Origin: Acidobacteriota bacterium
GTDB taxonomy: Bacteria > Acidobacteriota > Blastocatellia > RBC074
Length of the DNA: 64,000 nt
Assembly: GCA_033763255.1 (NCBI GenBank)
Contig: JANRKX010000024.1
Coordinates: forward strand, 12,835 to 76,834
Direction: 5' to 3'
Positions 1-15,577 of this stretch are shown here, one piece after another. The position numbers were made by a program, and so were the translations under genes. The notes under the pieces were generated by a model, which saw only the letters and a program-made list of their open reading frames with translations, had not been told where the DNA came from and ran no database searches. The stretch's first letter is position 1; each line of letters begins with the position of its first letter.

Positions 1-1463
1 ACATCGTCACGCTCGACACCGCGACGTTTGAATATCGCCCACAACAGAAAGCTCAATTCGCTTCGCTGGGCGCAGCCAAACAAATCGAAGGCCTGCCAGA
101 ACGCTTGCGCTCGCTGGTTTACGCCGAAGACAAAGCCGGTGAATTTCTTTGGCAAACCATGTCCGAAGCCGGCAGTTACGCCGCCAATCGCATCCCTGAA
201 ATCGCCGACAACATTGTCGAAATTGATAACGCGATGAAGTGGGGCTTTGCGCATGAAATGGGGCCATTTGAAAAATGGGACGCCATCGGCGTTGAAAAGT
301 CCGTCGCGCGATTGAAAGAAGAAGGCCGCCCAATTCCGGCCAACGTCGAAAAGATGCTCGCCACCGGAGCCAAAAGCTTTTACAAAACTGAAAACGGCGC
401 ACGGCAGTTTTTCGATTTTGCCAGCGGCGAATACAAACCTGTCACAACTCCGGCAGGCATCACCATCCTGAAATCGCTGAAAGATCAAAACAAAGTCGTC
501 AAGAAAAACGCTGGCGCAAGCCTGATTGATCTGGGTGACGGCGTGGCCTGCGTTGAATTTCATTCCAAGATGAACGCCCTGGGCAGCGATCAATTGGGAA
601 TGATTCAATGGGCAGTTAAAGAAGTTGAAAAGAATTACGTCGGCCTGGTCATCGGCAATCAAGGCGAGAATTTTTCTGCCGGAGCAAACATCATGATGAT
701 GCTGATGGCCGCGCAGGAAGGCGAGTGGGACGAAATCAATCTTGGCGTTCGCCAGTTCCAAAACACTACGATGAGCCTGCGTTATTCGGCGAAGCCTGTC
801 GTTGTCGCGCCGCATCATCTGACGTTGGGCGGAGGTTGCGAAATGGTGCTGCACGCCGACCGCGCAGTGGCTGCGGCTGAAACTTACATCGGCCTGGTTG
901 AAGTCGGCGTCGGCTTGCTTCCAGGCGGCGGCGGCACAAAGGAAATGGCCGTTCGCGCAGCCGAAGCGGCTGAAGCTTCGCCGGGCGTGGATCAGTTTGA
1001 AGTTCTTCGCGCCAACTTCGAGATGACCGCGATGGCCAAAGTCGCCACCAACGCCGTCGAAGCCCGCAAGTGGGGCTTGCTGCGCAAAGCCGACCGCGTG
1101 GTGATGAACGACAAACGCGTTATCGAAGAAGCCAAACAAACCGTGCTGACGCTCGCGCGCGAAGGCTACACGCCGCCGCAACCGCGTCAGGACGTTTTGG
1201 TTTTAGGCGAATCGGCGCTGACTAAATTCAAATTGGGCATGCACATGATGCAACGCGGCGGATACATCTCCGCGCACGATGCCTTGATCGGAACCAAGAT
1301 CGCCACGGTCATGAGCGGCGGCAATCTGACCCGCCCGACGCGCGTCAGCGAACAATACCTGCTCGATCTGGAACGTGAAGCCTTCGTCAGTCTGTGCGGA
1401 ACCAAAGCCACTCAGGAACGACTGGCGCATATGCTGAAGACGGGCAAACCGCTACGGAATTAA
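1..1463 (+). CDS. 3-hydroxyacyl-CoA dehydrogenase / enoyl-CoA hydratase fusion protein, C-terminal part (5' end lies outside the window)
   Basis: Frame 3 is open from nt 3 with no stop before the listed Met at 105, so the gene is cut by the window edge. A 3HCDH C-terminal-like segment (MGPFEKWDAIG) is followed by a crotonase-fold segment (GDGVACVEFHSKMNALG, GNQGENFSAGANI). Stop TAA at 1461-1463. Thiolase and acyl-CoA dehydrogenase genes lie downstream. Confidence 0.9.
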   Translation, partial: IVTLDTATFEYRPQQKAQFASLGAAKQIEGLPERLRSLVYAEDKAGEFLWQTMSEAGSYAANRIPEIADNIVEIDNAMKWGFAHEMGPFEKWDAIGVEKSVARLKEEGRPIPANVEKMLATGAKSFYKTENGARQFFDFASGEYKPVTTPAGITILKSLKDQNKVVKKNAGASLIDLGDGVACVEFHSKMNALGSDQLGMIQWAVKEVEKNYVGLVIGNQGENFSAGANIMMMLMAAQEGEWDEINLGVRQFQNTTMSLRYSAKPVVVAPHHLTLGGGCEMVLHADRAVAAAETYIGLVEVGVGLLPGGGGTKEMAVRAAEAAEASPGVDQFEVLRANFEMTAMAKVATNAVEARKWGLLRKADRVVMNDKRVIEEAKQTVLTLAREGYTPPQPRQDVLVLGESALTKFKLGMHMMQRGGYISAHDALIGTKIATVMSGGNLTRPTRVSEQYLLDLEREAFVSLCGTKATQERLAHMLKTGKPLRN

Positions 1464-3803: not shown

Positions 3804-5579
3804 ATGGCAGCACATGAAATCATCAAAGGCGGCGGCTTTCTGCTTCAGGAAACTTCGCCCGCAACCGTTTTCTCACCCGAAGATTTCAACGACGAACAAA
3901 AACTGATCGCGCAAACAACCGATGAATTCGTCGAAAACGAAATCATTCCGAACTTCGACCGGATCGAAACCAAGGATTACGAAATCCAGCGCGAACTCAT
4001 CAAGAAGGCCGCTGACCTGGGTTTGATCAACGCGCCGATTCCCGAAGCTTACGGCGGACTCGATCTGGATCACGTGTCGCAGATGTTGATCTACGAACAC
4101 CTGACCGGCAGCGCGTCGTTTTCGACGGGCTTTGGCGGAACGGCTGGCATTGGCTTGTTGCCGATTCTGCTCTTCGGCACGCACGAACAGAAAGAGAAGT
4201 ATTTGCCGAAACTCGGTTCAGGCGAATGGGTCGGCGCGTACGCCTTGAGCGAATCAAGTTCCGGCTCTGACGCGCTGGGAGCAAAATCCACCGCGCGATT
4301 GAGCGAAGACGGCGCGCACTGGATTTTGAACGGCGAAAAAATGTGGATCACCAACGGTGGCTTTGCCGATGTCGTCACCATCTTTGCCAAAGTGGACGGC
4401 GAACATTTCACCGGCTTCATTGTCGAAAAGAACGATCCAGGAGTCAGCCACGGCAACGAAGAACACAAACTGGGTCAGCGCGGATCGTCCACTACGCCGA
4501 TCATTATGCAAGACGCGAAAATCCCTAAAGACCGTTTGCTGGGCGAAATCGGCAAAGGCCATTTGATCGCCTTCAATGTGCTGAATCACGGGCGCATCAA
4601 CCTGGGCGTGGGTGGAGTCGGCGGCAGCAAACGAGTCGTTGAGCAAGCCGCGAAATACGCCGCGCAACGTCGTCAGTTCGGACGCGCCATCGCCAGCTTC
4701 GGCGCGATTCAATACAAGATCGCCGAAATGGCCGCGCGCACCTTTGCCTGCGAATCCGCCGTTTATCGCACCGCCGGAATGATCGAAGCGCGCGAAGCGA
4801 CAATTGACCGCACGAACCCGGTCGAATTGATGAAAGCCATCGAGGAATACGCCATCGAATGCGCCATCGCCAAAGTCGCCGGTTCCGAATTGCTGTTTTA
4901 TTGCGCCGATGAAAACGTGCAGATTCACGGCGGCAACGGCTTCACAGAAGATTACCCGGCAGAAGGCGTGTACCGCGATTGCCGCGTCAACCGCATCTTT
5001 GAAGGCACGAACGAAATCAACCGCCTGTTGATTCCAGGCCAGCTCATCAAACGCGCGATGAAAGGCGGATTGCCGCTGTTCCAGGCTGCGATGAAGTTGC
5101 AGGAAGAATTGCTAGCCGGACCTTCGTTCGATGAAAGCGACGAAGAATCTCCGCTGGCCAACGAAACCAAATTGGCGGCCAACGCCAAGAAAGTCGCCAT
5201 CGCTTTGCTCGGTTCCGCCGCGCAAAAATTCCAGGCGGCGCTGGCCGAACAGCAAATGATCCTGAGCTGGACGGCGGATGTCATCATTGACGCCTTCCAG
5301 ATTGACAGCGCCGTTGGCCGCACCGCCAAGCTGATTGCTCAGGACGGAGCGGAAAAACACTCAGCGGCGATTGACGCGACGAAGCTCTTCACGCACGACG
5401 CCATCAACCGCATTGAAGTCGCCGCCAAAAACGCTCTGGCCGCAATTTCCGACGGTGATGAACTGCGCGTGATGCTGGTAGCGTTGCGCCGCCTGACCAA
5501 ACAAGACCCACTCAACACGGCTGCGATTCGTGAACGACTCTCCAACAAAGTCGTTGAAGCTGGCGGTTACATTTTCTGA
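3804..5579 (+). CDS. acyl-CoA dehydrogenase, long (about 590 aa) form
   Basis: ACAD motifs YALSESSSGSDA and HGGNGFTEDYPAEGVYRDCRVNRIFEGTNEI (catalytic Glu context), plus a C-terminal extension typical of long-chain FadE-like enzymes. Confidence 0.93.
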   Translation: MAAHEIIKGGGFLLQETSPATVFSPEDFNDEQKLIAQTTDEFVENEIIPNFDRIETKDYEIQRELIKKAADLGLINAPIPEAYGGLDLDHVSQMLIYEHLTGSASFSTGFGGTAGIGLLPILLFGTHEQKEKYLPKLGSGEWVGAYALSESSSGSDALGAKSTARLSEDGAHWILNGEKMWITNGGFADVVTIFAKVDGEHFTGFIVEKNDPGVSHGNEEHKLGQRGSSTTPIIMQDAKIPKDRLLGEIGKGHLIAFNVLNHGRINLGVGGVGGSKRVVEQAAKYAAQRRQFGRAIASFGAIQYKIAEMAARTFACESAVYRTAGMIEAREATIDRTNPVELMKAIEEYAIECAIAKVAGSELLFYCADENVQIHGGNGFTEDYPAEGVYRDCRVNRIFEGTNEINRLLIPGQLIKRAMKGGLPLFQAAMKLQEELLAGPSFDESDEESPLANETKLAANAKKVAIALLGSAAQKFQAALAEQQMILSWTADVIIDAFQIDSAVGRTAKLIAQDGAEKHSAAIDATKLFTHDAINRIEVAAKNALAAISDGDELRVMLVALRRLTKQDPLNTAAIRERLSNKVVEAGGYIF

Positions 5580-6286: not shown

Positions 6287-7128
6287 TGATGATAGAAGCT
6301 TTCTCAATCATTGACGCATGGGCGCAACCGGCTCGGCGCGAAGCTTTCGCGAAACTGCCGGAGGTCGCTCGGCTGTTCAAACAATCCGGCTCGGCGCATT
6401 TGCTGGAAGCTGGCTTAACGACGGCGCAGATCGTCGCCGAGATGGATCGCGCAGGAATTCAAACCTTGATGCTGTCGGCGTGGCATCGTCCCGGGACTTG
6501 GGTGTTCAGCAATGACTTGATCGCGGAAATGGTGGACGAGTTCCCAGATCGTTTTGTCGGCGTAGCCAGCGTCAATCTGGAAAAACCAGTCGAAGCCGTC
6601 CGCGAATTGGATCGCGCCGTGAACGAACTTGGCTTCAAGGCGCTGCGCGTCATTCCCTGGCTATGGAAGCTGCCGCCGAATGACAAGCTGTATTACCCGC
6701 TGTATGTGAAGTGCATCGAACTCGACATTCCCTTTTGCACTCAAGTCGGCCACACGGGACCGTTGATGCCTTCGGAAACGGGACGTCCGGTTCCTTACCT
6801 GGACGAAGTCGCGCTGACCTTTCCCGAACTGAAAATCGTCGCCGGACACATCGGCCATCCGTGGACTGACGAAATGATCGGCGTGGCGTGGAAACACGAG
6901 AACGTTTTCATTGACACCTCGGCGTACCTGCCACGCTATTACCCGCCGCAACTGCTGCATTACATGAAAACTTATGGGCAGGATAAGGTGATGTTCGGAT
7001 CGAACTTCCCGCAGTTGTCTTTGGAAAAGTGCGTTCAACAAGTGAACGAGCTTGGATTGGCCGATGACATCAAAGCGAAGTTCCTGTTCCAAAACGCTCA
7101 GCGTGTGTTCAAGCTTGAGACCAATTGA
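6286..7128 (+). CDS. amidohydrolase family protein (Amidohydro_2-like metal-dependent hydrolase)
   Basis: ATG at 6286 overlaps the upstream TGA by 1 nt (TGATG). Motifs AGHIGHPWTDE and FIDTSAY, with overall TIM-barrel amidohydrolase-like sequence. Confidence 0.8.
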   Translation: MMIEAFSIIDAWAQPARREAFAKLPEVARLFKQSGSAHLLEAGLTTAQIVAEMDRAGIQTLMLSAWHRPGTWVFSNDLIAEMVDEFPDRFVGVASVNLEKPVEAVRELDRAVNELGFKALRVIPWLWKLPPNDKLYYPLYVKCIELDIPFCTQVGHTGPLMPSETGRPVPYLDEVALTFPELKIVAGHIGHPWTDEMIGVAWKHENVFIDTSAYLPRYYPPQLLHYMKTYGQDKVMFGSNFPQLSLEKCVQQVNELGLADDIKAKFLFQNAQRVFKLETN

Positions 7129-8072
7129 TGCGAATCGAAAAACTGACGATCCCAACTCCCTTCCCTGTTGGCCCGATCAACATTTATCTGGTCATCGAAG
7201 ACCCGTTGACGCTGGTGGACACCGGCCCAAAAACCGATGAAGCTCTGGCGGCGTTGCGCGCGCAGTTGCAGCAACTCGGTTTTTCTATCAAAGACATCCA
7301 GCGAGTCATCCTCACGCACACGCACGAAGACCATTGCGGATTGGCCGCAACGATTCAGCAGGAATCCGGCGCGCGGGTTTACGTTCACGAATGGGAATAC
7401 CAGAACATCTCCGAACACAGAGCCACGCGCGTCAATCGCAACTTGCTGATTCCCGCCGGAGTTCCCGCCGAAGAATTGGAAACGATGGCTGGCCGTTACG
7501 AACTGATTCACCATTACGCCGACGCAGTGGCAAACGTTGAAGCTTTCCGAGATGAGCAGGAATTCGTGTTCGCTTCAGGCAGTTTGCGCATCGTTCACAC
7601 GCCCGGTCACACGCCGGGAAGCTGCTGTCTGCTGCGCGAAGCGACTCGGCTGATGCTGACTGGCGACACGGTGTTGAAAACCATCACGCCGAATCCAGTT
7701 TTGAACTCTGACCCGGTTGACCCGAGCCGCCGCTTTCCTTCGTTGGGAGAATATCTGGTGTCGCTGGCCAGGATTCGAGAATTGGCTCCGACTCTGCTGA
7801 AAACTTCACACGGCGGAGACGTGACCGATTACGAAGAACACTTTCACCGCTCCGTAAAACAGATTCAGGAGCGCCAAAACAAAGTCATAGGCTTTGTCGC
7901 TAAACAAGGTGTCACGGCCTGGGAAATGTCTAAGCTGCTGTTCCCAAAAGTGGACAACCTGAATCGGTTCTTAGCCGTTTCCGAAGCCGTCGCCCATCTT
8001 GATCTGGCCGTTGCCGAAGAAAAACTGCGCATCGAAAAGCGCGGCGACGTGGAATTTTATCTGCGCTATTGA
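7128..8072 (+). CDS. MBL-fold metallo-hydrolase
   Basis: HxHxDH motif LTHTHEDHCG, then later HTPGHTPG. ATG 7128 overlaps the upstream stop by 1 nt. Confidence 0.9.
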   Translation: MRIEKLTIPTPFPVGPINIYLVIEDPLTLVDTGPKTDEALAALRAQLQQLGFSIKDIQRVILTHTHEDHCGLAATIQQESGARVYVHEWEYQNISEHRATRVNRNLLIPAGVPAEELETMAGRYELIHHYADAVANVEAFRDEQEFVFASGSLRIVHTPGHTPGSCCLLREATRLMLTGDTVLKTITPNPVLNSDPVDPSRRFPSLGEYLVSLARIRELAPTLLKTSHGGDVTDYEEHFHRSVKQIQERQNKVIGFVAKQGVTAWEMSKLLFPKVDNLNRFLAVSEAVAHLDLAVAEEKLRIEKRGDVEFYLRY

Positions 8073-11918: not shown

Positions 11919-13181
11919 TCATTCGTAACGAAGAGCTTCAATTGGGTCGAGCCGGGCGGCTTTCCAAGCCGGCCACAATCCGAAGCTGACTCCCAATCCA
12001 ACCGACACGGCAAAGCCAACTACCGGCGCCCACAACGGAACGAAGGTCGGCATCACCAGCTTGATAAGTTCGGCCAAGCCCCAGCCAATCAAAATGCCTA
12101 CGACGCCGCCCAAGCCGGTCAACGTCGCCGCTTCGATCAGGAATTGCAGCACGATGTCGCGCCGCCGAGCGCCGATGGCTTTGCGAACGCCGATTTCTTT
12201 GGTTCGTTCGGTGACGCTGACCAGCATGATGTTCATCACGCCGATGCCGCCAATCAGCAAACCGACGCTGGAAATCGCCACCATCAACAAAAAGACTCCG
12301 CCGGTGATCGCTTTGAATTGCTGGATGATGCCTTCGGAGGTTTGAATGCCGAAATTGTCCGGCTGGTCGTAAGCGACTTTGCGCCGTTTTCTGAGCGCCT
12401 GACGGATTTCGTCCAGCGCCTGTTCCTGTTTGCCGGGCGCGTACTGTGCCATGACGAAGTTTTCTTTGACGTTCGGGAAAACTTTCCGAATCGTTTCGTA
12501 AGGAATATAAACCGCTTTGTTTTCGTTGCCAGGATCGTCGGCGGGAGTGATGAACGTCTCACGTTTTTTCATCACGCCGATGACGCGGTAATTACGCCCA
12601 TTAATCATGATTTCTTTTTCGAGCGCCGCAACCGTCGGAAACAGTGTGTTGGCGACATCTCGTCCGATGACACACACATCGGCGCGCGCGAGGTTTTCGC
12701 CATCGGTGAAAAAGCGGCCTTCGGTGACTTCGGTGTTGCCCATTCGGAAATACGCGGGCAAGGTTCCCTGCACCGTCGCGTTGTACATTTCCGTATCTCG
12801 AAAGCGAATTTTGACGCGCTCCGCCATCGGCCCCTGCAAAAAATCCACCGGCGACATAAACGGAGTGACATCCGTCACCGAAGGGCATTCATCCCGAATT
12901 GCCATCGCATCTTCGTAACTGATCGGTTTGCGCTGCCGCTCTTCCGCCGACGGATTGAAGTTGAAACCCGGATCGAATTTGAAGATGTAGATCGAATTCG
13001 TACCGAACGATTCAATCTCTTTGGCGACTTGCGAATCAATGCCCGACACAAAGGCGGCAATCACAATCACGGTCGTCGTGCCGATGACGACTCCCAGAAT
13101 CGTCAAAAACGACCGCAGCTTGTGTTGCCACAACGTGTCGAACGCCATCCAGATGTTTTCCCGAAAATCCTGATGAGTCAT
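11919..13181 (-). CDS. ABC transporter permease, MacB/FtsX family (no ATPase domain)
   Basis: N-terminal LWQHKLRSFLTILGVVIGTTTVI, a large periplasmic MacB_PCD-like middle region, and a C-terminal FtsX module RTKEIGVRKAIGARRRDIVLQFLIEA. Confidence 0.9.
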   Translation of the reverse strand: MTHQDFRENIWMAFDTLWQHKLRSFLTILGVVIGTTTVIVIAAFVSGIDSQVAKEIESFGTNSIYIFKFDPGFNFNPSAEERQRKPISYEDAMAIRDECPSVTDVTPFMSPVDFLQGPMAERVKIRFRDTEMYNATVQGTLPAYFRMGNTEVTEGRFFTDGENLARADVCVIGRDVANTLFPTVAALEKEIMINGRNYRVIGVMKKRETFITPADDPGNENKAVYIPYETIRKVFPNVKENFVMAQYAPGKQEQALDEIRQALRKRRKVAYDQPDNFGIQTSEGIIQQFKAITGGVFLLMVAISSVGLLIGGIGVMNIMLVSVTERTKEIGVRKAIGARRRDIVLQFLIEAATLTGLGGVVGILIGWGLAELIKLVMPTFVPLWAPVVGFAVSVGLGVSFGLWPAWKAARLDPIEALRYE

Positions 13182-13184
13182 AAA

Positions 13185-13736
13185 TTACGCCAATTGAAAT
13201 TCTGGCAACGCCAGATTCAAACGCTCCGACAAGCCCAGTTTTTTATCGAAGCCAGCCAAATCAGCAGAGCTGCAATTTCCCAAAAGGTCCGTCACATCGT
13301 TCGCATCAAACAAGGTATAAAACCGCTGCGTAGGCCAGTAAAAAACGACGACCTTCTTATCGCGTGTCAGCAAGTTCACGACGTTGTTAAGCGTGCCATT
13401 GCTTTTGCCGTCCCAAAGCATGAACCCGTGAGTCGCTTCTTCTGCCATCTGCGAATCTTTCAGTGCATAAAACTCAAACCCGCGCTTGCCTTGTTCAGCC
13501 GTGACAACGCGCGTTTCCCAGTTTCCAATGTTGTTGCGACATTTATCGTTCATGCAAAACACCATCACATTACGGTGCCCCTTGTCGGCCAGGTATTTTT
13601 GAACGGCTTTATCCGCACCGTTGGCATCACCAATCAAAACTCTGAAGCTGTTGTTGATAATGTTGTCGAGCCGTGCTGTGACCAAATCGTTCAACCTGGT
13701 CACGTTTCTCGAACCACCAATGAAGATTTTCGTCAT
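13185..13736 (-). CDS. SLOG / DprA-LOG-like Rossmannoid protein (DUF2493-like), candidate antitoxin or sensor
   Basis: IFIGGSRNV...(about 25 aa)...VLIGDANGADKAVQKYL...WDGKSNGTLNNV matches the GSR / G-x-G-x-D / S-x-GT layout of DprA, LOG and DUF2493 proteins. It has a 4-nt ATGA overlap with the upstream PRTase gene, and its stop lies 3 nt from the next permease start. Confidence 0.65.
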   Translation of the reverse strand: MTKIFIGGSRNVTRLNDLVTARLDNIINNSFRVLIGDANGADKAVQKYLADKGHRNVMVFCMNDKCRNNIGNWETRVVTAEQGKRGFEFYALKDSQMAEEATHGFMLWDGKSNGTLNNVVNLLTRDKKVVVFYWPTQRFYTLFDANDVTDLLGNCSSADLAGFDKKLGLSERLNLALPEFQLA

Positions 13737-14323
13737 AACGCACTCCTGGTTCTGGTTACAGCCAGAGCATAAACGTCAACAACTTCGCCTTTTTCAATTA
13801 AGGTTTTGGTCAAGGCATCCATCGTTGCGCCCGACCTGAACAGGTCATCGAAAAGCAGCACGATCCGTCCCTGCACTTTCGATTTCTTGATGTTGAAAGC
13901 ATTTTCCAATGCCGCAACGCGCTTATCGTACTCGTAAATGTTCTTCACTTCTGGTGTGCTTTTGAATTTGGTCACGCAATCTGAACACATTGGCACTCTG
14001 AGCTTTGCAGCCAATTCATTCGCCAGCAACAGAATTGGCTGGAAGTTTCTTCTCTTTGAAGGCGGAACCGGCAGGATCAAATCTGGTTCGATTTTCCAGC
14101 GGCGCACAAAGCCAGCCGCAGCTTCGGCTATCTCACCCGCCACTGAACGATCCGCTTTGTATTTCAACCTGTAAAGCAACTCGCCAATCTCACTCCGCTG
14201 CGTATCAAAGATTGGATGGCCAAATTCATCGTGGCCAACAAACTGGCTGTGCAGCGTGTGGTAATCAAGTGCAAACCCTAGTCGCCAATTTCCAGGAATC
14301 CTGATTGGATTGATACTTGCCAT
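13733..14323 (-). CDS. ComF-family phosphoribosyltransferase lacking the N-terminal zinc finger, candidate toxin or effector
   Basis: LYRLKYKADRSVAGEIA, DLILPVPPSKRR, ENAFNI and the PRPP-binding loop GRIVLLFDDLFRSGATMDA follow the ComF/PRTase order. No Cys4 finger is present at the N-terminus. Confidence 0.8.
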   Translation of the reverse strand: MASINPIRIPGNWRLGFALDYHTLHSQFVGHDEFGHPIFDTQRSEIGELLYRLKYKADRSVAGEIAEAAAGFVRRWKIEPDLILPVPPSKRRNFQPILLLANELAAKLRVPMCSDCVTKFKSTPEVKNIYEYDKRVAALENAFNIKKSKVQGRIVLLFDDLFRSGATMDALTKTLIEKGEVVDVYALAVTRTRSAL

Positions 14324-14344
14324 TCTTTACACTTCCCTTCTTCC

Positions 14345-15577
<1,233 letters not shown>

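Follow-up and report, generated by a model that had tools for sequence, protein, structure and literature searches.

A stretch of 64,000 nucleotides from the genome of a soil Acidobacteriota bacterium of the Blastocatellia (assembly GCA_033763255.1, contig JANRKX010000024.1, positions 12,835 to 76,834; hereafter 'the window', meaning the whole stretch) carries, between two genes for MacB-type permeases, a pair of overlapping genes that encode a 196-aa phosphoribosyltransferase (PRTase) and a 183-aa protein of the SLOG superfamily. We consider it probable that this pair constitutes a minimal, horizontally mobile two-gene toxin-antidote (or abortive-infection) module, kin to PsyrTA/RqlHI, ShosTA and the P2 DprA-PRTase system, in which the PRTase would act as toxic effector, with the SLOG protein as antidote. 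We draw this conclusion from homology, from the pairing of the two genes, from the asymmetry of their decay, from their location on plasmids and from the fusion of some SLOG proteins to helix-turn-helix (HTH) domains. As such, the module would be the smallest natural version of these systems (a single PRTase domain and a single SLOG domain, free of added helicase, pyrophosphatase or SAM domains), and it is abundant, with copies on clinical Klebsiella and E. coli plasmids and a partner protein that escapes the PADLOC, Pfam and NCBIfam models. To our knowledge, the acceptor substrate of the PRTase effectors (of retrons, PsyrTA, ShosTA, DprA-PRTase and Ophion) is still not known, and the pair offers a clean and tractable system in which to study the targets of modification by ComF-clade PRTases and the way in which DprA-like proteins counter these enzymes. 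Furthermore, the annotation of plasmids and genomes would gain an addiction or defence module that currently goes unannotated.

The gene organisation given by the first-pass annotation of the window (two minus-strand open reading frames (ORFs) of 196 and 183 aa that overlap by ATGA, 21 nt after one permease gene and 3 nt before the other) was recovered exactly (Table 1), and the motifs that it quoted are present in both proteins (DLILPVPPSKRR, ENAFNI and GRIVLLFDDLFRSGATMDA in the PRTase; GGSR, GDANGAD and SNGT in the SLOG protein). The two folds that it had proposed are likewise upheld by AlphaFold2 (AF2) models and Foldseek searches. The upstream gene encodes a type I phosphoribosyltransferase core of the ComF/PsyrT clade (with the Rossmann-like core, the phosphoribosyl pyrophosphate (PRPP) loop and the pyrophosphate (PPi) loop that characterise type I PRTases), in which an N-terminal beta-meander replaces the zinc finger of ComF. 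Against the PADLOC models it matched the C-terminal domain of PsyrT (E=1.8e-20; profile positions 537-686 of 689) and, partially, ShosT (1e-6); its score against TIGR00201 comF (E 3e-13, 50.1 bits) lies far under the cut-off of 233.55, and that against Pfam PF00156 (22.1 bits) slightly under the cut-off of 26.3. The AF2 model (alignment of 30 homologs, pLDDT 91.8) has as its best Foldseek match the ComF protein of H. pylori (7p0h, E=9e-7, TMq 0.64), with ShosT (8zvd/8zvc) at TMq 0.54-0.55, and of the 86 PDB matches at E<=1e-3 the 50 listed are all of PRTase fold. The PRPP loop (LLFDDLxRSGAT) is invariant in the family, as are D159 and D160 in the 30 homologs. Residues 1-111 contain no cysteine, hence no zinc finger of the ComF type exists in this protein, in agreement with the lack of a Cys4 finger noted earlier; the sole cysteines (C112 and C115) are not conserved in the family. 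At the place of the ComF zinc finger, residues 15-43 are predicted to fold into a sheet of three strands, in which His, Asp and Glu residues are conserved.

The partner is a compact, basic, DprA-like protein (family median isoelectric point 9.15) with invariant GGSR, GDAxGxD, CRNN, KD and SxGTLN motifs, and in its family 27 positions do not vary across 30 sequences with an identity of about 50%. Its AF2 model (pLDDT 91.7) shows the SLOG Rossmannoid fold, with the Gly-rich loop after strand 1 and the GxD/E-type motif of the superfamily, and was best matched by ShosA (8zva, E=4e-4, TMq 0.55), followed by DprA and then by YpsA (2nx2, TMq 0.57), the SLOG domain of ThsA and the N-terminal domains of TRPM. 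No Pfam, NCBIfam or PADLOC model reached its threshold: the window protein scored 0.014 with Pfam YAcAr and E=0.15 with NCBIfam dprA, and gave no match to Pfam DprA at E<=1. Among 30 members of the family, sub-threshold matches to Pfam DprA were found in 17, faint ones to YAcAr in 9 and faint ones to YpsA (PF06908; best E = 0.28) in 2. Moreover, when the family was compared by hhalign with the DprA-like proteins that serve as alternative partners (see below), the GSR and GxAxGxD motifs lined up, with a weak E=0.022; a search of PDB sequences with the SLOG profile found nothing.

Pairing, decay and mobility across genomes

The PRTase and SLOG families are both large and uniform in length, a profile search with the SLOG family recovering 2446 clusters at 50% identity. 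Their association was examined in two scans, each judged on its 80 best-scoring loci (mostly metagenome-assembled genomes and metagenomes). The SLOG-anchored scan, with one genome per species, returned 582 relatives, the best 80 of which span more than 12 phyla and in most cases carry the PRTase gene directly upstream on the same strand. In the PRTase-anchored scan (80 metagenome loci), 12 loci ended at a contig edge, and an intact SLOG gene lies immediately downstream in 67 of the 68 assessable ones, the remaining locus (L167) having a DprA-like gene (257 aa) instead. Similarly, on a prophage-like viral contig (L088) a member of the PRTase family is followed by a 315-aa DprA-like protein that matches PsyrA (1e-62), ShosA (3e-42) and Pfam DprA, and together these two loci indicate that the compact SLOG protein and an antitoxin of the known type are alternative partners of one PRTase family. 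Essentially, the PRTase never occurs without a partner from the SLOG superfamily. The ATGA overlap points to translational coupling of the two genes, and L001, L175, L177 and L179 are annotated with an identical overlap of 4 nt; in tblastn coordinates, the SLOG match begins 6 nt beyond the end of the PRTase match in 40 of the 66 full pairs and 0 nt beyond it in 11. The neighbourhood comparison that the first-pass annotation had proposed thus finds the pair abutting or overlapping in unrelated genomic contexts.

The decay of the two genes is markedly asymmetric. Among the 74 assessable SLOG-anchored loci the PRTase gene is intact in 59, truncated, frameshifted or stop-containing in 9 and missing in 6, so that about 20% of the loci (15/74) have an intact SLOG gene with a decayed or missing PRTase; a degraded SLOG gene beside an intact PRTase was found in none of the 68 assessable PRTase-anchored loci. 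Fisher's test, for which the first-pass counts were used (17/57 vs 1/67; two SLOG-anchored loci were reclassified by eye), gave p = 7e-5. This is the pattern expected if the PRTase is harmful in the absence of its partner. Some PRTases with a different or extended N-terminus, at L038 (5201-6001) and L026 (upstream of 5518), may represent domain-swapped variants and not decay; the ORF at L038 has 266 aa and matches only residues 76-189 of the PRTase. The orphan SLOG genes adjoin genes for SSB, a RecD-like helicase, an NYN domain protein, D12 methyltransferases or restriction-modification (R-M) systems. In three Chloracidobacterium loci (L005, L006 and L020; 4048-8308) the SLOG gene is accompanied by an R-M system and lacks a PRTase, the stretch between pheS and pheT holding a D12 methyltransferase, a SacI-like restriction enzyme, the orphan SLOG gene and a 575-aa gene.

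The surroundings of the pair are diverse: its 148 immediate neighbours represent 127 Pfam families, the majority with housekeeping functions (the statistics being approximate, as the ORF caller missed some foreign genes, e.g. in L005), and include no competence genes. Among plasmid records the SLOG gene was found in 103 (56 of them typed as conjugative) and the PRTase gene in 70, and conjugative plasmids that host the pair come from Klebsiella, E. coli, Agrobacterium and Sinorhizobium; it adjoins repA (Klebsiella IncFIB/FII), two R-M systems (E. coli IncFII) or SIR2 and HNH genes (Sinorhizobium). A Klebsiella plasmid copy has the RefSeq accessions WP_016528968 and WP_016528967. Thus, the pair displays the generic genomic attributes of a toxin-antitoxin (TA) system, being a compact, probably co-transcribed, mobile and plasmid-borne two-gene unit with no PRTase lacking its partner and with orphan SLOG genes in existence. 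In several plasmid lineages (Agrobacterium, Xanthomonas, Brucella, Sinorhizobium and others), as well as in P0416 and P0481, the SLOG protein bears a C-terminal HTH of the HigA/XRE type; on the plasmids these fused proteins carry the RefSeq name 'addiction module antidote protein', and the gene immediately upstream, of the ComF family, overlaps theirs by 4 nt. In rare singletons, which are either fusions or read-throughs of adjacent genes, the SLOG domain is joined to PRTase, NADAR, DUF4326, DUF488, Abi_alpha, HEPN_AbiU2 and antitoxin-type HTH domains. RefSeq labels the PRTase homologs 'ComF family protein', and a literature search on the RefSeq accessions of the plasmid homologs found no mention of them.

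Three individual replicons deserve separate mention. On the Agrobacterium fabrum plasmid pAtl-11c (L179, 3414-5961) a TA pair of DUF433 and VapC/PIN genes lies directly beside the PRTase-SLOG(HTH) pair, and modules of the DUF433-PIN and PRTase-SLOG types seem to share niches. On the Serratia liquefaciens plasmid p2-125 (IncI1; L180, 857-4555) the pair is located just downstream of plasmid-borne recA and umuD genes, a placement that is intriguing given that ShosA neutralises ShosT via RecA and that may equally be a coincidence. A pair with 38-41% identity occurs in a stretch without annotation (L185; 4001-4492 and upstream) of the Neisseria gonorrhoeae record NZ_CP119142.1 (2.17 Mb), which is evidently a chromosome filed as a plasmid.

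Insertion between two permease genes

The orthologs of the downstream permease (MacB1; 73-98% identity) place the organism in the Blastocatellia and keep the gene order gatB-PPIase-MacB2-[ ]-MacB1-DUF2062, in which the brackets mark the gap that the pair occupies in the window. This gap is empty (with spacers of 20-46 nt) in L176, L187 and L188 (MacB1 identity 94%, 89% and 84%), and in the other relatives its content varies: L175 (98%) has the window's own pair, L177 (86%) a PRTase-SLOG pair that shares just 58-60% identity with it, L178 (90%) a 246-aa ORF together with a DUF433-PIN TA pair (4369-4993), L186 (90%) an unknown 137-aa ORF, and L024 (73%) a D12 methyltransferase and a SLOG gene. 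The three empty sites identify the window pair as an insertion, and the spacer at one of them (L176, 20 nt, GCAGAAAATGGAAGTGGCTT) resembles that at the left junction of the window. Furthermore, the varied content of the gap designates the site as a hot spot for small selfish modules; that it is shared with a bona fide TA pair (DUF433 and PIN in L178) speaks for a conflict module. The hot spot between tandem MacB permease genes may also serve as a small reusable marker for further cargo in Acidobacteriota.

At the left edge of the insert, L171/L172 and L178 carry a duplication of the first 16-21 codons of MacB1 (MTHQDFRENVWMAFNT, MARQDFRENFWMAFDTLSQHRL), with break points that differ between the two lineages. 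To judge from these sequences, such remnants suggest that recombination took place via the conserved termini of both permease genes, which may have acted as homology arms for cassette exchange; no MacB1 5' remnant was seen at the window's own junctions. A transposon- or integron-like cassette was ruled out, the window having neither flanking direct or inverted repeats around the pair nor a recombinase. Scans of the window for promoter-like and terminator-like signals at the pair stayed at chance level, which in combination with the tight spacing makes co-transcription with the permease operon likely, and the pair is probably read through from it.

The first-pass annotation had described a low-GC cassette that splits a tandem gene duplication. 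The insertion itself is borne out by the empty sites, and the duplication is not recent: the two flanking permeases are only 36% identical to each other and therefore form an old pair of paralogs. Similarly, its GC estimate for the pair holds (48.1%), and that for the flanks was too high (58-67% had been given; the permease genes have 54.2% and 56.0%, with a window mean of 53.9%). Among the 50 genes of the window the two rank second and fourth lowest in GC (z about -2), with an unremarkable GC at third codon positions (GC3) in the SLOG gene (z -0.2), a moderately low one in the PRTase gene (z -1.6) and atypical codon usage in the PRTase gene only (second of the 50). The expected departure in composition was thus found for overall GC, and for codon usage in one gene of the two. 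As this signal is modest, we argue the foreign origin of the pair from the empty site and not from composition.

Known relatives and competing explanations

In ShosTA, PsyrTA/RqlHI, type III retrons and Ophion the toxic or effector function resides in a PRTase domain, and these defence-associated PRTases belong to one clade (bioRxiv 10.1101/2025.09.30.679545), and PRTase-dependent toxicity combined with DprA-like antitoxins is documented (PMC11961720, PMC12961424, PMC4670107). ShosT loses its toxicity upon the substitution D331A/D332A in the equivalent Asp-Asp of the PRPP loop (PMC11961720), a motif kept in the window PRTase as D159 and D160; the toxicity of RqlH likewise requires the Asp of the PRPP loop, its PRTase domain is genotoxic, and RqlI co-precipitates with it only if that domain is present (PMC4670107). 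ShosA, on the other hand, acts via single-stranded DNA (ssDNA) and RecA without binding ShosT (PMC11961720, PMC12961424). In addition, a DprA-PRTase gene pair that comes from a P2 prophage hot spot was shown by experiment to confer protection from T7 and lambda (Rousset 2022, PMC9122126), and comparative genomics has drawn attention to genes for YpsA and a PRTase that occur as a pair (Burroughs 2015; Brzozowski 2019, PMC6459960).

The pair resembles each of these systems in part. With PsyrTA/RqlHI it shares the two-gene operon with a SLOG-superfamily partner, and by sequence its PRTase is most closely related to the corresponding domain of PsyrT; this PRTase nevertheless lacks the helicase domain (196 aa vs about 690) and has an N-terminal beta-meander unique to its family; the partner is a 183-aa SLOG protein without a match to the PsyrA model. 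With ShosTA it has in common the logic of a PRTase toxin and a DprA-like SLOG antitoxin, with ShosA as the best structural match of the partner, but ShosT (424 aa) carries an additional N-terminal pyrophosphatase domain that is absent from the window PRTase, and ShosA combines a SAM domain with a larger, nine-stranded Rossmann domain (>313 aa; PMC11961720, PMC12961424). The P2 system is equally a minimal pair of a PRTase and a DprA-like protein, and L088 and L167 combine the window's PRTase family with just such a protein; the window partner is much smaller and belongs to a sequence-unrelated SLOG family (the P2 proteins having been compared by description only). As regards the natural-transformation proteins ComFC and DprA, no solved structure matches the PRTase better than ComF and faint DprA matches exist in the partner family, yet the window pair has no Cys4 zinc finger and no competence context, scores under the ComF cut-off and shows a mobile, patchy distribution. 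Finally, YpsA is among the best structural matches of the partner, with faint Pfam YpsA matches in just 2 of 30 members to set against this. The pair falls outside the definitions of ShosTA, PsyrTA and ComF, since it has no ShosT pyrophosphatase domain, no ShosA SAM domain or model match, no PsyrT helicase, no PsyrA model match, and no ComF zinc finger or score above the cut-off; at the level of folds and of overall logic it agrees with them.

The first-pass annotation had likened the pair to ShosTA and considered it an undescribed minimal variant. The likeness is sustained by ShosA being the best match of the partner and by the matches of the PRTase to both PsyrT and ShosT, with the reservation that the PRTase lies nearer to the ComF/PsyrT clade than to ShosT. 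As to novelty, the idea of a PRTase with a DprA-like partner is not new, given the two-gene defence system of Rousset 2022 (PMC9122126) and the YpsA-PRTase pair (PMC6459960); what sets the pair apart is its compact SLOG partner family, which is widespread, present on clinical plasmids as well and outside the Pfam, NCBIfam and PADLOC models.

In the toxin-antidote scheme that we favour, the 196-aa ComF-clade PRTase would be a PRPP-dependent toxic effector (a role assigned by analogy with its homologs), which the translationally coupled 183-aa SLOG protein would keep harmless, either by binding the PRTase domain (in the manner of RqlI) or by acting on ssDNA or repair (in the manner of ShosA). 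If the SLOG protein were lost or titrated away, for example upon phage infection or plasmid loss, the effector would be released, and in this Blastocatellia genome the module would have landed in a recombination hot spot between MacB-type permeases. Of this scheme, the folds, the conserved pairing, the mobility, the insertion and the uneven decay are observed; the toxicity, the choice of the SLOG protein as antidote and the trigger are inferred. Several observations weigh against the scheme. The isolated PRTase domain of RqlH is not toxic alone (PMC4670107), hence a stand-alone 196-aa PRTase need not be toxic either. The window SLOG protein lacks the SAM domain of ShosA (PMC11961720) and gave no match to the PADLOC models of ShosA (searched at E<=1) and PsyrA, its resemblance to PDB entries being structural alone, with moderate TM-scores of about 0.55. 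The decay asymmetry comes from a biased sample (the 80 best matches per scan), known defence genes are not enriched among the immediate neighbours, and the singleton PRTase-SLOG fusion (P0496) is equally compatible with a regulated enzyme complex and with a TA pair. Moreover, 2.9 million viral contigs yielded no more than 3 PRTase loci and a single, partial SLOG locus. Separately, this near absence and the weakness of the matches in a phage collection (9, unannotated, at 25-33% identity) rule out a phage-borne or anti-defence gene.

The main rival, unlikely but credible, is a sensor-effector defence pair, in which the SLOG protein would sense phage ssDNA or a nucleotide signal and activate an otherwise inactive PRTase, acting as activator and not as antidote. 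The same model was put forward by Rousset et al. for DprA-PRTase (PMC9122126), the SLOG domain of Thoeris ThsA, itself one of the structural matches of the partner, binds signalling nucleotides, and the SLOG domain of the present family is occasionally fused to effector-type domains (Abi_alpha in P0430, HEPN_AbiU2 in P0440) or to the PRTase itself (P0496). These effector fusions are singletons, however, and a harmless PRTase would predict PRTase-only loci to be about as frequent as SLOG-only ones, which the counts (0/68 vs 15/74) contradict; furthermore, the HTH-fused SLOG proteins resemble autoregulating antitoxins, and DprA-like partners do act as antitoxins in ShosTA and RqlHI (PMC11961720, PMC4670107). 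The same decay asymmetry, together with a patchy distribution that extends to strain-level presence and absence at one site, also argues against a non-conflict accessory pair, concerned with nucleobase salvage or modification or with competence-like handling of ssDNA (a mini-ComFC with a mini-DprA) and mobile only incidentally. What recommends this reading is that ComFC and DprA both work on incoming ssDNA in transformation (PMC9005727, PMC4670107), that the PRTase finds its best structural match in ComF, that the SLOG family is basic and that orphan SLOG genes lie beside SSB, RecD-like helicase and DNA methyltransferase genes; we nonetheless hold it to be very unlikely, as the PRTase lacks the zinc finger and scores 50 against a TIGR00201 cut-off of 233, no competence genes lie near the pair, and the pair is enriched on conjugative plasmids beside replication, TA and R-M genes. 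An accessory function in the enclosing MacB-type ABC transporter operon, to which the tight spacing (21 nt and 3 nt), the lack of promoter or terminator signals above chance and the likely co-transcription would lend themselves, is next to impossible: MacB/FtsX accounts for only 2 of the 148 neighbours, so that the confinement to MacB operons which the first-pass annotation had named as fatal to its proposal does not exist, and in relatives the permease genes are adjacent (L176, L187, L188) or separated by unrelated cargo (L178, L186). With empty sites and unrelated contexts elsewhere, this role was ruled out.

As a quite unlikely elaboration, the two proteins could form a writer-eraser pair, the PRTase placing ribose-5-phosphate from PRPP onto a base in ssDNA or onto a free base (a genotoxic adduct) and the SLOG protein binding the modified ssDNA or nucleotide and stripping the adduct, much as DarG or NADAR reverse DarT. 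LOG phosphoribohydrolases, which share the SLOG fold, cleave the bond between base and ribose-5-phosphate. Such an activity would explain the SLOG domains fused to or beside NADAR, DUF4326 and DUF488 domains, the orphan SLOG genes beside SSB, helicase and methyltransferase genes, the enzyme-like invariance of the SLOG family at 27 positions, and the genotoxicity of the RqlH PRTase domain (PMC4670107).

Feature coordinates and a neighbouring gene

The features of the pair and its flanks, and the duplicated MacB1 ends of its relatives, are collected in Table 1. The upstream permease is probably 410 aa long with its start at MHFIEAIK, its orthologs in L175-L178 having 408-410 aa.

Table 1. Positions of the gene pair, its junctions and flanking permease genes in the window, and of duplicated MacB1 5' ends in related loci
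Sequence	Feature	Coordinates	Strand	Basis or remark
Window	PRTase gene (196 aa)	13733..14323	minus	ORF list, fold model, profile matches
Window	SLOG partner gene (183 aa)	13185..13736	minus	ORF list, fold model
Window	ATGA stop/start overlap of PRTase and SLOG genes	13733..13736	minus	sequence GCGTTATGACGAAA
Window	Left junction, 21-nt spacer from upstream permease stop to PRTase start	14324..14344	minus	window sequence GGAAGAAGGGAAGTGTAAAGA
Window	Right junction, three bases TTT from SLOG stop to downstream permease start	13182..13184	minus	window sequence
Window	Upstream MacB-type permease (MacB_PCD + FtsX), flank outside the module	14345..15577	minus	Pfam
Window	Downstream MacB-type permease (MacB_PCD + FtsX), 420 aa, flank outside the module	11919..13181	minus	Pfam
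L172	Duplicated MacB1 5' end	121-167		
L171	Duplicated MacB1 5' end	1-30		
L178	Duplicated MacB1 5' end	about 4270-4357		C-terminus of the 246-aa ORF

Elsewhere in the window, a plus-strand gene at 7125-8072 encodes a 315-aa protein of the metallo-beta-lactamase (MBL) fold, whose orthologs in L175-L178 give weak or faint matches to Pfam Anti-Pycsar_Apyc1; as the gene is conserved in synteny, it is probably an ordinary MBL-fold hydrolase.

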